The translations under genes were made by a program, and so were the position numbers. 64,000 bases of DNA from a virus. Of this stretch, positions 32,030 to 41,824 are shown in pieces. The stretch's first letter is position 1. The number at the start of each line of letters is the position of its first letter. The notes beneath the pieces were generated by a model. The model was given only the letters and a program-made list of their open reading frames with translations, had not been told where the DNA came from and did no database searches. The stretch is from IMG/VR virus record IMGVR_UViG_3300009481_004294; one strand, written 5' to 3'.

Positions 32030-32413
32030 ATGGTTACTAGAGAAGAAATTGAACAAAAGTGTAAAGACGCTTTTGATGAAGCAGGCATGGGCCTTTCCTT
32101 CCCAGAAATTACACCAGAAAAAAATATAGCACAGGATCTTGATATTGATTCAATTCATATTTTAGAGACTATGATTCTTATTGAAGATGAATTTGATATT
32201 ATGTTAGATGCTGAAGAATTTCAAAAAGCAACTACTGTAAGGGATCTTTATGATTTAGTTGAAGTAAAAATAAAACAAGGAGCTAAAATTAAAGAACTTG
32301 AAAAAGAAGCAGGCGATGATGAAAAAGCTAGAAACAGATTATTAGAACAACTAAAGAAAGATAAAGAAGCAGGTACAGGGGTTTATGAAATGAGCCAATA
32401 TGAGAAAAAGTAA
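32030..32413 (+). CDS. acpP: Acyl carrier protein with C-terminal extension
   Basis: DLDIDSI phosphopantetheine Ser motif, IEDEFDI.L, TVRDL; GAGGA RBS before ATG 32030. Confidence 0.88.
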   Translation: MVTREEIEQKCKDAFDEAGMGLSFPEITPEKNIAQDLDIDSIHILETMILIEDEFDIMLDAEEFQKATTVRDLYDLVEVKIKQGAKIKELEKEAGDDEKARNRLLEQLKKDKEAGTGVYEMSQYEKK

Positions 32414-33524
32414 AATATCAGGACTTGGTGACTATGGTGTATTTATAGATGATGTATCATTAGCAGAAATGTCTGATAATGATTGGATGCAATTAGGAAA
32501 AGAACATCTTACAGATTTAGTTACAATTATTAGAAATGTAGATATTCAACCATCTGAATTTGAACGTAAGATGTATTTATGGGGCGCCCCATATGTTATA
32601 GATGGATATCGTATTAAGAAAAAATATGAAAAAAAATTAGGAATATCTAATTTATATACATTATTCAAACGTGATCTTTTAGAAGAAGAAGATCGCCGAC
32701 ATGCAGAAAATTTAACGTGGTATATTGCGGCAGGGGATAATTTTACAGAAGAAGAGGTTCCTGCTGATTCTCATTTAATTCGTATAACTGGTATGAAAGA
32801 GAATGGGAGAAGTATGGGAATGTTTGCTGAAGGAGAATTGGGCTGGCATTCTAATGAAGCGGGTTCGCTTTGCTTTACTCCTGGTGTTGCACTCATGGGC
32901 ATAAAAGGAATGGTGGGGTCTTCAACAGGATTTGTTTGTTCTGCAACTTGGTACGAAAAGCAAAGAGATTCTTTTAAAAGAGAATTAGATGATATGACTG
33001 TTATTTTTAAATATCAAAATTATGAAACTGCTCCTGAATTAAATAAAGATCAAGATGATTCATTTCGTTGGAATCAAACGTTTGAACCGATTGAACTTCC
33101 ACTGGTTATTACAACCCCTGGAGGAATAAAAGGTCTGCATTATTCTCCTGGTACAGTAGAGAGAACTAAATTTTTAGATGATTTAGACAAAGAATTATTT
33201 GTAGATGAATATACTTATCATCACAAGTATGAAAGAAATAATGATATATTACTTTTTGATAATTGTATTACTTTGCATAATAGACAAGGATCCCCCATTG
33301 AACGAGTGGCTTATCGAGAACCATGTGATTATGCTCAGTTAATTCCTGATGGATATAATTATTATTCCCAAGAGCCTTATAAAACACAATTTGAAGAAAT
33401 GAGAAAAGACATACAGGAAACTCTTGGTGTTAAATCTATAGCTGAACAGAATATGGTTTTTAAAAAATATATTCAACCAAAATTCCCCAAAAGAGAATGG
33501 AAAAACAATGATCTAGTGAGGTAA
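32400..33524 (+). CDS. TauD/TfdA-family Fe(II)/2-oxoglutarate dioxygenase-like protein
   Basis: WHSNE...GST.F and YHHKY...D.LLFDN..TLH.R pattern; first iron motif is HxN/E rather than HxD. Confidence 0.8.
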   Translation: MRKSKISGLGDYGVFIDDVSLAEMSDNDWMQLGKEHLTDLVTIIRNVDIQPSEFERKMYLWGAPYVIDGYRIKKKYEKKLGISNLYTLFKRDLLEEEDRRHAENLTWYIAAGDNFTEEEVPADSHLIRITGMKENGRSMGMFAEGELGWHSNEAGSLCFTPGVALMGIKGMVGSSTGFVCSATWYEKQRDSFKRELDDMTVIFKYQNYETAPELNKDQDDSFRWNQTFEPIELPLVITTPGGIKGLHYSPGTVERTKFLDDLDKELFVDEYTYHHKYERNNDILLFDNCITLHNRQGSPIERVAYREPCDYAQLIPDGYNYYSQEPYKTQFEEMRKDIQETLGVKSIAEQNMVFKKYIQPKFPKREWKNNDLVR

Positions 33525-33525
33525 A

Positions 33526-39439: not shown

Positions 39440-40279
39440 ATGTTCAAATTTACAGCAAATAGGTTTGCAGTTATTATGATTTCTATTATTCATACGTTAT
39501 TTCATATATTAACTGTATATGGATTAATAACTTTTTCTTTACATTGGTTATGGTTATCTTTTATTGGTGTTATATTATTACGACATATCGGTACAGAAAT
39601 AGGAAATCATCGATATTTTTGTCATAGGAGTTTTGAAGCAAAACCTTGGGCAGAATGGCTTATGATGATTGGATATGCATTTTCGTATGGAGGAAGTAAT
39701 ATAGCATATGCTATAGGTCATAGATGGCATCATGCTACATCTGATACTGAAAAAGATCCAATTTCTCCTCATAACATTAAGAATGTTAAAGATGTTTTTA
39801 GAATTATAACTCAAACTTTAGGAGAACTTCAACAGGAAGAACGTAAAGATTGGAATATTTTTAGAAAAAGTGAAAATAAATTTTGTAAAAAATTATTTAA
39901 AAATAAAGTAGCAAGATTCAATCATGAATATTATTGGTTAATAGCACTTTCTCCCATTGTAATTTTATCAATAATCGATATTCGTTTGTTAATATTTTTT
40001 ATAGCATTACCTTGTGTTATAACTTTTTGGTCTGGAATGTTAGCACATTTTTTAGGACATGTAATGTTATTTGGTTGTTATAGAAATTATGAAACTACAG
40101 TTGATGATCTATCGGTAAATAATCCATGGTTAAATATAATAACAGGAGGATTAGGAACATTACATAATAATCATCATGCACATCCTGAAAGATATAATTA
40201 TAAAATGTCTAATAGATGGTATGAGACAGATTTTCCCAATGTGTTTTTAATAGAAAAGTTTTTAAAACATGATAGATAA
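39440..40279 (+). CDS. Membrane fatty-acid desaturase 5
   Basis: HRYFCH / HRWHH / HNNHH. Confidence 0.9.
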   Translation: MFKFTANRFAVIMISIIHTLFHILTVYGLITFSLHWLWLSFIGVILLRHIGTEIGNHRYFCHRSFEAKPWAEWLMMIGYAFSYGGSNIAYAIGHRWHHATSDTEKDPISPHNIKNVKDVFRIITQTLGELQQEERKDWNIFRKSENKFCKKLFKNKVARFNHEYYWLIALSPIVILSIIDIRLLIFFIALPCVITFWSGMLAHFLGHVMLFGCYRNYETTVDDLSVNNPWLNIITGGLGTLHNNHHAHPERYNYKMSNRWYETDFPNVFLIEKFLKHDR

Positions 40280-41063
40280 CCTTAATAAATTATTTGTTAA
40301 AGATTTTCAAATTAGTATATTACAATATGTGTGGATTTATACCTTTCCTATCATATCTGTATTGGGAATAATATATTCGTCATGGCATTGGTTGTTTTTA
40401 ACATTAGTGGGTATAATTTTGTTTAAAGATATTGGAGGCGAAATAGGAGTCCATAGATACTGGACACATAATTCATTTAAAGCGAAACCTTGGGTACCAA
40501 AATTATTTTCAATTTGTACAATTTTATGCTATGCTGGTAGTCCTCTTACTTGGTCATATGTTCATAGACATCATCATGAGCATTCTGATACTGAAAAGGA
40601 TGTACACTCTCCCCACCACAGCAAATGGTATCATATCTGGAGAGGATATTGGGATTTTTCAAAAATAGAAAAGTTTGATCCTAGATTCGTAGCAGATTTG
40701 TTGAAAGATGAATCAATAAAATTTGCACATCGATATCATTTATTGATTCAAATATGCGTAATCATAATAACTGTGTCTATAGATTGGAGAATATTTGTAT
40801 TTTTATTTGCTCTTCCTAGTGCAATAACATTTTGGTTTGGATCTATAGCTGTTAATATGATGAGTCATTTGTGGGGATATCGTAATTTTGAAACACCTGA
40901 TAATTCAAAAAATAATATACTTGCTTGTATTCTTGTTTCTTCTGGAGGATTACAAAACAATCATCATTATAATCCTTCTTCATATAATTTTAAAATGTCA
41001 GATAGATGGTATGAACAAGATATGAAAAATGTGTTTCTTATTGAAAGATTTTTTAAAGCATGA
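40269..41063 (+). CDS. Membrane fatty-acid desaturase 6
   Basis: HRYWTH / HRHHH / QNNHH. Confidence 0.9.
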   Translation: MIDNLNKLFVKDFQISILQYVWIYTFPIISVLGIIYSSWHWLFLTLVGIILFKDIGGEIGVHRYWTHNSFKAKPWVPKLFSICTILCYAGSPLTWSYVHRHHHEHSDTEKDVHSPHHSKWYHIWRGYWDFSKIEKFDPRFVADLLKDESIKFAHRYHLLIQICVIIITVSIDWRIFVFLFALPSAITFWFGSIAVNMMSHLWGYRNFETPDNSKNNILACILVSSGGLQNNHHYNPSSYNFKMSDRWYEQDMKNVFLIERFFKA

Positions 41064-41824
41064 TTAATTATTATATTAAATCTAAGCGAACTCCCTATTT
41101 TTTCTTAATTAATTTAATTGCTCATTTAGCAATTATACCCGCAATTCTTTATGGCGAATGGTGGATGTGGATATTAAGTTTGATATGGTGGCAGTGGATA
41201 GGATGTACAGCATATACTACTGGGTATCATAGGTATTATACTCATAAAAGTTTTAAAGCACCGCTTTGGTATGATTATTATTTTAATTTTTTTTCTTTAT
41301 TTGGTAATCCAGGACCAGTTCTTATATGGAGCGGAACACATAAATTACACCACAAATATAGTGATACGGAATTAGATCCACATAGTCCTAAACATAAAGG
41401 ATTTTGGAATGTGTGGACAAGTTTTTGGGGAATGGGAGTGTTTACAATAGATCCTCCTACAAGAGAAGATTTAAAAGATTGGTTAGAAGAAACAAAAGAT
41501 CCTATTGCTAAATGGTTTTATGATAATTATCTTTCTTTAACAGTTATTATTATGATTGTATTGTTATTCATGGGTCCTTGGTTTTTTATATTTGGTTTTT
41601 GTATTCCTACATGTTTAATACTTCATGGTTCGGGTATTATTAATGCATTTACTCATAAGAATGGAAAACCAGAGAATAAAAATTTAGTGGCATTGATAAC
41701 CGCTGGAGAAGGATGGCATTTGAATCATCATGAAGATCCATCTAATTATACGACAAGAAAAGAGTCGTATAAATGGTGGCAAGTTGACTTAAATGGTATA
41801 TGGATCAATTTAATTAAAATATAG
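41060..41824 (+). CDS. Membrane fatty-acid desaturase 7 (most divergent, closest to the canonical GEGWHxNHH type)
   Basis: HRYYTH / HKLHH / AGEGWHLNHH. Confidence 0.92.
   Translation: MINYYIKSKRTPYFFLINLIAHLAIIPAILYGEWWMWILSLIWWQWIGCTAYTTGYHRYYTHKSFKAPLWYDYYFNFFSLFGNPGPVLIWSGTHKLHHKYSDTELDPHSPKHKGFWNVWTSFWGMGVFTIDPPTREDLKDWLEETKDPIAKWFYDNYLSLTVIIMIVLLFMGPWFFIFGFCIPTCLILHGSGIINAFTHKNGKPENKNLVALITAGEGWHLNHHEDPSNYTTRKESYKWWQVDLNGIWINLIKI

Follow-up and report, generated by a model that had tools for sequence, protein, structure and literature searches.

A virus carries a gene cluster of new architecture at positions 32030-41824 of the 64,000-nucleotide stretch of DNA analysed here (the window, from IMG/VR virus record IMGVR_UViG_3300009481_004294). 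Judged from its sequence and conservation, the block is a real viral biosynthetic cassette. Its 13 genes are predicted to encode one acyl carrier protein (ACP), one TauD/TfdA-family protein, a short-chain dehydrogenase/reductase (SDR), a type III polyketide synthase (PKS), an AcpS-type phosphopantetheinyl transferase (PPTase), a 2-oxoglutarate (2OG)-Fe(II) oxygenase and seven membrane desaturases (Table 1). We hold with about even confidence that the block makes a specialised lipid-polyketide on the phage's own carrier protein, by a pathway of which we infer every chemical step.

Thirteen coupled genes inside the virion module

The window is part of a 76.9-kb record with a completeness estimate of 33%. 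Virion genes recognised in it are those for the large terminase, tail sheath, portal, scaffold and gp23-type major capsid protein. The capsid protein shares 64% identity with its counterpart in Pelagibacter phage HTVC008M and 62-63% with the ones in phages Melnitz and Mosig. From this gene set, the capsid protein identities and a GC content of ~30% we therefore assign the source to an uncultured marine T4-like myovirus, in agreement with an earlier reading made from the DNA letters alone (the sequence-only reading), which had called the phage T4-like. The biosynthetic block is flanked by the portal gene (11087-12769) on one side and by prohead-protease, scaffold and capsid genes (45323-48622) on the other, and therefore lies inside the virion module.

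All 13 genes of the block are present and intact on the + strand in the list of open reading frames (ORFs), and are joined by overlaps of 4-35 bases or by 1-base gaps, so that the description of the genes as contiguous and coupled stands. Between 75% and 99% of sampled words from 32030-41824 were found in 20 sequencing runs from at least six studies, and contigs from three DNA runs tile the block with almost no differences, which rules out that the seven-copy desaturase array is an assembly artefact. Scans for promoters and terminators did no better than chance. The late-promoter word TATAAATA showed no enrichment; it occurs on the + strand upstream of 8083, 43774 and 46030 and, within the cassette region, only at 23891. 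A megablast comparison of the cluster with GenBank phages gave no match.

The sequence-only reading had named an ACP with a DSI serine, a type III PKS with an intact Cys-His-Asn triad, an AcpS, an IPNS-like 2OG oxygenase and seven desaturases, and the family profiles agree with it on all of these (Table 1). The ACP is assigned to the fatty-acid-synthase (FAS) type (AcpP/AcpM-like): its serine lies within DLDIDSI, the DSI of which aligns to the phosphopantetheine serine (DSL/DSI) of solved ACPs (PDB matches 1.8e-7), and it carries a charged C-terminal extension of ~45 amino acids. The translation of the AcpS gene contains GIDL, with the Mg-binding Asp, and KEAFSKA, the KEA motif; the protein matches NCBIfam holo-ACP synthase models at 1e-13, yet falls below their equivalog cut-offs. 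We favour the later start of this gene, at 35213, because its relatives measure 121-126 amino acids. A predicted complex of ACP residues 1-85 with the PKS dimer scored 0.02, which speaks neither for nor against binding.

The best PDB match of the PKS is Mycobacterium tuberculosis Pks11 (2.4e-29), with the catalytic triad of which Cys136, His270 and Asn303 align; the Cys column is the one altered in the Pks11 C-to-S entry. Across 14 family members the Cys and Asn are invariant and the His is nearly so. In one relative, 77% identical (P0003), Gln replaces the catalytic His (WICQPGG), which may be a variant or a sequencing error. Nearly all of the best 60 PDB matches bear the name of a type III PKS and none that of FabH or KAS III; among NCBIfam models, DpgA was matched at 1e-22 and FabH models at E 1e-4 or worse. 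By these comparisons the PKS is nearer to the type III PKSs than it is to FabH/KAS III. About 20 close relatives were found among 5.8 billion proteins, all of them metagenomic. In an exhaustive HMMER search, the cluster to which the protein belongs came out at 77% identity, and no further match exceeded 31%. Identity is thus at least 68% within the family and at most 31% to the next relatives, any cellular type III PKS included, and by this measure the phage PKS lineage is isolated from cellular type III PKSs. The nearest cellular relatives (28-31% identity) adjoin a methyltransferase and an FAD hydroxylase, in SrsABC-like phenolic-lipid clusters. The second-best match of the exhaustive search, a 4818-residue protein of the green alga Cymbomonas tetramitiformis (P0021), holds 12 matched type III PKS stretches and is either an odd tandem-PKS architecture or an annotation artefact.

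The three His boxes, HRYxxH, HxxHH and (H/Q)xNHH, are kept in all seven desaturases, six of which pass the PF00487 cut-off. The third box reads QNNHH, not HNNHH, in three of them (within 37805-41063), as it does in front-end desaturases; in the divergent type C enzyme it reads HLNHH, and this enzyme is without the GYRNF segment. The desaturases match mouse stearoyl-CoA desaturase 1 (SCD1; 4ymk) at 2.5e-20, with conservation of the extra Asn/His pair (N187 and H191), and have hydrophobic segments at about 10-50 and 150-200, as expected of paired membrane hairpins. From these features we classify them as SCD/Delta-9-type membrane fatty-acid desaturases. The five type B paralogues are 42-69% identical to one another. 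In the desaturase tree the phage enzymes form two clades, types A and B together and type C separately. The extra copies in the window are all type B duplicates, the relatives holding single B orthologues, and the type C clade has orthologues in every relative that bears the triad.

Eight orthologues of the SDR all keep its Rossmann and Ser-Tyr-Lys motifs (TGxxSGxG, NNA, a serine and YSxGK) without change, and a profile built from the eight weakly matches structures of the 3-oxoacyl-ACP reductase FabG (2p68, 3e-4; 2ph3, 2e-3). The single sequence falls below the Pfam cut-off and has no PDB sequence match, and the protein is ~40 amino acids shorter than FabG. It is probably a FabG-like ketoreductase; the assignment to the SDRs made by the sequence-only reading thus rests on the motifs and the orthologue profile. 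That reading's TauD-like dioxygenase holds as regards family membership, but the canonical carboxylate ligand is lacking. The metal site of 2OG dioxygenases is canonically HxD/E, and HxA/G in halogenases; the phage protein has H150-x-N152 ... H293, with WHSNE and TLHNR invariant in three orthologues, and its H-S-N fits neither form. The protein has no PDB sequence match, and its activity may be unusual or absent. In the 2OG-Fe(II) oxygenase, HxD...H and RxS are intact, and the ligands align with those of its best PDB match, TraH (3.7e-12).

Conservation, module exchange and flanking genes

Related contigs (L001-4, L003, L011, L012-16 and L104-106) keep the core order ACP-SDR-PKS-AcpS-2OG-desaturases, and their proteins are 47-83% identical to those of the window. 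At least six divergent types of phage contig have the core, and all PKS-bearing contigs are T4-like phages. Ratios of nonsynonymous to synonymous substitution (dN/dS) were 0.14-0.50 for every gene tested, including 0.34-0.44 for the desaturase paralogues, indicating that the genes of the block are under purifying selection and ruling out that they are decaying. The proposal that the genes form one coherent unit is upheld by this synteny and these ratios. In the index of the assembly collection, the core protein of one relative occurs in 276 blocks.

The tailoring genes around the core vary. L002-type contigs have a TauD-like protein, a Rieske ring-hydroxylating oxygenase and an Asp/Arg hydroxylase; L003 has two extra 2OG oxygenases; L012, L014 and L015 have a Rieske oxygenase; and L011 and L105/106 have Asp/Arg hydroxylases and a FabA-family dehydratase (a strong match, 5.6e-29, with ApeI/ApeP-like models matched too). 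Desaturases number one in L105, three in most contigs and seven, the extreme, in the window. Such variation in tailoring genes resembles that of natural-product clusters and supports the reading of the block as a cassette.

Comparison of the window with L011 (over 22954-46742) gave DNA identities of 91-98% on both flanks and of 66-85% over about 31200-41820, where gene content also differs. At the right breakpoint, 41820, identity jumps from 66-85% to 98%; the left breakpoint, ~31200, falls inside the gene for an all-helical protein, the C-terminal part of which belongs to the module. We conclude from these identities that ~31200-41820 was exchanged as a module between otherwise near-identical phages. 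The block at 32030-41824 almost coincides with this exchangeable module.

The module is in turn part of something larger. In every contig a Cys-repeat protein, three radical S-adenosylmethionine (SAM) enzymes and several further genes lie upstream of it, and a TYW3-like protein lies downstream. Orthologues of the Cys-repeat protein, 66-96% identical, stand ahead of the radical SAM genes in L002, L011, L012, L014 and L015, and for the first two radical SAM enzymes identities to relatives are 68-99%. An alignment-based search of IMG/VR found the third radical SAM family on no contigs other than those that also bear the PKS, a scan with the single protein having found nothing. Homologues of three neighbouring genes (22929-24423) follow the block in L002 and L003 and precede it in the window, L011, L012, L014 and L015 (the L015 contig holds two of the three). 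In L105/L106 the block stands in another genomic context and is followed by genes for asparagine synthase, ribosomal protein S21, NifU and IscA-like proteins. By position and order, the Cys-repeat and radical SAM genes, the module and the TYW3-like gene therefore behave as one cassette, larger than 32030-41824. The label of a self-contained, complete pathway, given by the sequence-only reading to 32030-41824, is not supported.

The proteins near the cassette at 16433-18692 of L105/L106 include a NifU-like and two IscA-like Fe-S assembly proteins, which fit there because the cassette's demand for iron and Fe-S clusters is heavy.

A model of the TYW3-like protein (AlphaFold2, pLDDT 70) gave fold matches to the TYW3-like structures 2qg3 (Z 7.9), 2drv (7.8) and 1tlj (7.1) and to MTHFR (5.2), and an Atlas feature search independently named TYW3, MTHFR_C and DUF6919. 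We tentatively regard the protein as a TYW3-like candidate methyltransferase, tentatively because a Z near 8 is borderline. Its gene adjoins tailoring genes in L002, L011, L104 and L105. In L002 the place of the window's 222-residue protein is taken by a gene (3977-4798) for a full-length paralogue of the TYW3-like protein (E 7e-13 over 250 amino acids against window 41921-42775); the window's 222-residue protein has the N-terminal domain alone in common with the TYW3-like protein (E 2e-4).

The all-helical protein has an internal duplication of ~50 amino acids in the window phage and a C-terminal tail, ...CEMLEFD..Q, that is strictly conserved in all 13 aligned family members. Its AlphaFold2 model (pLDDT 75.6) matched generic helical bundles or repeats only in the PDB (Z at most 10), had no match in a viral structure library, and gave nothing usable in an Atlas search. 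Neither protein encoded at 30046-31033 matched a family, and that at 30046-30792 had no usable Atlas lead. The proteins at 42775-43729 had no Pfam match; the 87-residue one is encoded inside the cluster in L002. ARAGORN found no tRNA, and Rfam no match, in the gap at 41825-41968.

Table 1. Genes and other features of the cassette and its flanks, with positions in the window
Feature	Position	Strand	Basis or remark
Cys-repeat protein with CNCNFCP heptads, encoded first in the larger cassette	24431-25024	+	
Two radical SAM enzymes (25034-26320 and 26525-27751), small ORF between	25034-27751	+	Pfam Radical_SAM on orthologues
222-residue and 87-residue proteins	27748-28679	+	
Third radical SAM enzyme	28676-30052	+	PF04055, 31.1 bits; CxxxCxxC and C-terminal Cys cluster
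Two conserved proteins, 248 and 91 residues	30046-31033	+	Orthologues in every relative
All-helical protein	31030-32013	+	Always directly upstream of the ACP gene
ACP, FAS (AcpP/AcpM) type	32030-32413 (ORF open from 31997)	+	PF00550, 31.5 bits (cut-off 20.8)
TauD/TfdA-family protein	32400-33524	+	PF02668, 42.7 bits (cut-off 27)
Short SDR, 205 residues, FabG-like	33526-34143	+	adh_short, 18.2 bits, below cut-off of 26.6
Type III PKS	34140-35168	+	Chal_sti_synt_C, 41.9 bits; Chal_sti_synt_N, 33 bits (Pfam cut-off 27)
AcpS-type PPTase	35213-35593 (ORF open from 35165)	+	PF01648, 43.3 bits (cut-off 25)
2OG-Fe(II) oxygenase (IPNS/flavonoid-oxygenase family)	35590-36315	+	PF03171, 62.2 bits (cut-off 23)
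Desaturase type A	36290-37048	+	PF00487, 58 bits; clade with L002, L003 and L015 orthologues, SH-aLRT 98
Desaturase type B, copy 1	37014-37808	+	Paralogue alignment
Desaturase type B, copy 2	37805-38575	+	Paralogue alignment
Desaturase type B, copy 3	38572-39438	+	Paralogue alignment
Desaturase type B, copy 4	39440-40279	+	NCBIfam DesA_fam, 1.2e-15; 50-55% identical to paralogues; below PF00487 cut-off
Desaturase type B, copy 5	40269-41063	+	Paralogue alignment
Desaturase type C, divergent	41060-41824	+	PF00487, 36.4 bits; NCBIfam DesA_fam, 1e-14
Only sizeable non-coding gap in the cluster, at right breakpoint of swapped module	41825-41968		
TYW3-like protein	41969-42775	+	Invariant SCEGH motif; C-terminal TYW3-like/MTHFR-C-like (SAM-binding) fold
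Conserved 87-residue protein and 227-residue protein	42775-43729	+	100% and 89% identical in L011

Known systems, a proposed pathway and its alternatives

Polyyne and alkyne clusters (cay, pgn, cepacin, jamABC) hold a fatty acyl-AMP ligase (FAAL), a dedicated ACP, a desaturase triad, a thioesterase and a rubredoxin; polyyne formation is thiotemplated and needs the desaturase triad (PMC9828172). The phage block likewise has a dedicated carrier protein beside several SCD-like desaturases, of three types in most relatives. The best genome matches of its desaturases (31-36% identity) are tandem desaturases of Pseudomonas and Burkholderia polyyne clusters, which by Pfam contain a FAAL, two desaturases, an ACP and a desaturase-hydrolase fusion (confirmed for Pseudomonas danubii, partly so for the Burkholderia strain). 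By contrast, in a tree with an unresolved backbone neither phage clade (A+B or C) falls within either of the two clades of tandem polyyne desaturases, and both are distant from the PgnH-type enzyme; the phage desaturases became a triad through duplications of their own and have no orthology to CayB/C/E or PgnE/F/H. The link to JamB/Cay-type desaturases proposed by the sequence-only reading therefore survives as a weak nearest-score relation and fails as orthology. The block also adds the type III PKS, SDR and 2OG oxygenases, and its ACP has no alignable similarity to that of the Pseudomonas polyyne cluster. As that reading had stated for acyl-AMP ligase and thioesterase, the 76.9-kb, 33% complete record has no match to PF00501 (acyl-AMP ligase, at E 0.1) or PF00975 (thioesterase), and it has none to PF00301 (rubredoxin). 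On account of these absences, the other type of ACP and the non-orthologous triad, the block is not a canonical polyyne cluster, though similar.

With the phenolic-lipid PKS clusters (Streptomyces SrsABC, Azotobacter ArsABCD, Bacillus BpsAB, M. tuberculosis Pks11/18) the block has in common a chalcone synthase (CHS)-like enzyme with a Cys-His-Asn triad and an oxygenase-rich tailoring set. Pks11, the closest structure-bearing relative of the phage PKS by sequence, is a long-chain alpha-pyrone synthase. Unlike those clusters, the block is without an ICMT-type methyltransferase or FAD hydroxylase, its PKS is at most 31% identical to theirs, and it has its own ACP and AcpS, desaturases, 2OG, TauD and Rieske oxygenases and a TYW3-like protein, in a lytic-type phage. 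Nor does the block belong to the SrsABC/ArsABCD type, clusters with different tailoring enzymes and no private FAS.

Among phages, the cyanophage gene vFAD also encodes a Delta-9-family membrane desaturase in a T4-like marine phage (Roitman et al. 2017, PMC5776448); the vFAD genes are single and act on host membrane lipids, whereas the block has 3-7 paralogues coupled to ACP, AcpS and PKS. Within the phage collection searched, a type III PKS match came from Streptomyces phage ZL12 alone (two GenBank records), a large actinophage, at 22% identity over 71% of the protein. Pelagibacter phage Mosig (L019) has beside its tail-fibre genes, at 50756-69274, a lone desaturase, a taurine-dioxygenase-like protein, two Asp/Arg hydroxylases, MoaA-like radical SAM proteins, methyltransferases and an aminotransferase, with no PKS or ACP; this may be a related kind of enzyme island. 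Of such genes, a survey of pelagimyophages names no more than radical SAM cassettes and a freshwater stearoyl-CoA desaturase. The full-text literature searched yielded no account of a pathway like this in a lytic phage and no paper on such a cluster, in keeping with the sequence-only reading's impression that it looks undescribed.

We propose the following pathway. The phage AcpS would convert the phage ACP to its holo form, and host FAS-II enzymes would load and elongate an acyl chain on it; we propose host loading because the ACP is of the FAS type and no loading enzyme is encoded, and the earlier suggestion of a host-derived starter fits with this. The SCD-like desaturases, of three types with five copies of type B here, would put several unsaturations into the thioester-bound chain, much as in thiotemplated polyyne pathways. 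The type III PKS would take the chain as starter, extend it with malonyl-CoA and release it by cyclisation as an alkyl-pyrone or alkyl-resorcinol, which would replace the missing thioesterase. The FabG-like SDR would reduce a keto group, and the 2OG oxygenase and TauD-like protein would tailor the product, as the TYW3-like protein may also do. The Rieske ring-hydroxylating oxygenase of most relatives fits an aromatic ring.

Several observations weigh against this pathway. Most type III PKSs use acyl-CoA, not acyl-ACP. The record encodes no acyl-loading enzyme, thioesterase or electron carrier; as it is 33% complete, the missing functions could lie elsewhere in the genome. The phage desaturases are not placed within the polyyne clade, and the genome scan that led to the polyyne clusters was biased by a search pattern favouring LHNNHH-type enzymes (a 19-sequence desaturase alignment was too diverse for that scan). 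The TauD-like protein has Asn where an Asp or Glu iron ligand is expected. The expression evidence is one 245-nt marine metatranscriptome contig that matches the PKS gene at 34884-35128 with two differences, a weak hint only, because RNA libraries can hold DNA. The single desaturase of L105 means that heavy polyunsaturation is not a core property, and the sequence-only reading's highly unsaturated product is to that extent overstated. Lastly, the scheme leaves the constant linkage to the Cys-repeat protein and three radical SAM enzymes unexplained.

That linkage is the starting point of an alternative that we regard as unlikely, in which the whole cassette serves a single product, a Cys-rich protein or peptide that is crosslinked by the radical SAM enzymes and receives the unsaturated chain from the ACP as an acyl group. 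The product could be a lipidated component of the virion or one targeted to membranes, by a logic like that of PKS/FAS-RiPP lipopeptides (RiPP, ribosomally synthesised and post-translationally modified peptide). Consistent with it, the stretch from the Cys-repeat gene to the tailoring genes shifts as one unit relative to its three neighbour genes and recurs in the other context of L105/L106, the third radical SAM family keeps to PKS-bearing contigs, a TYW3-like paralogue lies within the radical SAM half in L002, and the cassette sits between portal and prohead-protease genes. However, family searches of the cassette proteins recognised no acyltransferase, condensation or GNAT domain, and the PKS module was swapped independently while the radical SAM half stayed 91% identical in DNA. 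Co-location in a hypervariable hot spot could also be coincidence, and the linkage may reflect shared descent because all the contigs come from one phage lineage.

It is likewise improbable, in our judgement, that these are separate auxiliary genes with no common product, the desaturases remodelling host membrane acyl chains (for fluidity, or against cold or pressure) and the PKS independently making a phenolic lipid or quinone-like membrane component. Cyanophage Delta-9 desaturases do act on host C16 lipids (PMC5776448), the window enzymes are of the SCD/Delta-9 type, Mosig's one desaturase stands alone amid enzymes unrelated to it, the number of copies ranges between 1 and 7, and there is no gene for a dedicated electron carrier. 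Yet linkage and translational coupling always tie a dedicated ACP and AcpS to the PKS and desaturases, adjacent genes for three distinct types of desaturase are conserved, and the module is exchanged in one piece. The cyanophage desaturases are, moreover, not detectably similar: tblastn of the window's desaturases against phages at E 1e-3 matched only Mosig and one Acinetobacter phage.

We give very little credence to a private fatty-acid or polyene synthase, in which the PKS would condense within an ACP-based cycle (ketosynthase and FabG-like ketoreductase, with a FabA-type dehydratase in some relatives) to a polyene or hydroxy chain, not a resorcinol or pyrone, that the desaturases and oxygenases would finish: the FabG match of the SDR profile, the FabA-family dehydratase added in L011 and L105/106 and the FAS-type ACP are in its favour, but the condensing enzyme is clearly CHS-like, not FabH/FabF-like, the window has no dehydratase, and no malonyl-CoA:ACP transacylase or enoyl reductase is encoded.

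Taken together, the interpretation offered by the sequence-only reading is partly supported, and the lipid-polyketide pathway on the phage's own carrier protein remains the reading that we carry forward.

Meaning for phage biology and natural products

As a rule, the auxiliary genes of phages encode lone enzymes that adjust the metabolism of the host. By contrast, the cassette would be a multi-enzyme carrier-protein pathway of 10-19 kb, with its own PPTase, inside the virion module of a common ocean phage lineage. We consider it possible, though short of probable, that a widespread lytic marine T4-like lineage encodes a modular, rapidly diversifying natural-product pathway, with a host-fed ACP-bound chain, an expandable desaturase array and a virus-specific PKS releasing the product as an oxidised phenolic or pyrone lipid, possibly together with a radical-SAM-modified Cys-rich protein. 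If true, this would be the first polyketide secondary metabolite from a virus of bacteria, as far as the literature searched shows, and its role in the infected cell would be membrane takeover, anti-grazer or anti-competitor chemistry, or virion lipidation. A further question is what a phage in iron-poor seawater gains from seven di-iron desaturases, two 2OG-type oxygenases and three Fe-S radical SAM enzymes.

With the cassette, ACP-dependent desaturation and its coupling to a type III PKS could be studied in a compact, AT-rich set of genes. If a discrete metabolite is made, infected marine cells would be a source of new lipid and polyketide chemistry, and the swapping of cassettes between phages would be a viral route for diversifying natural products.

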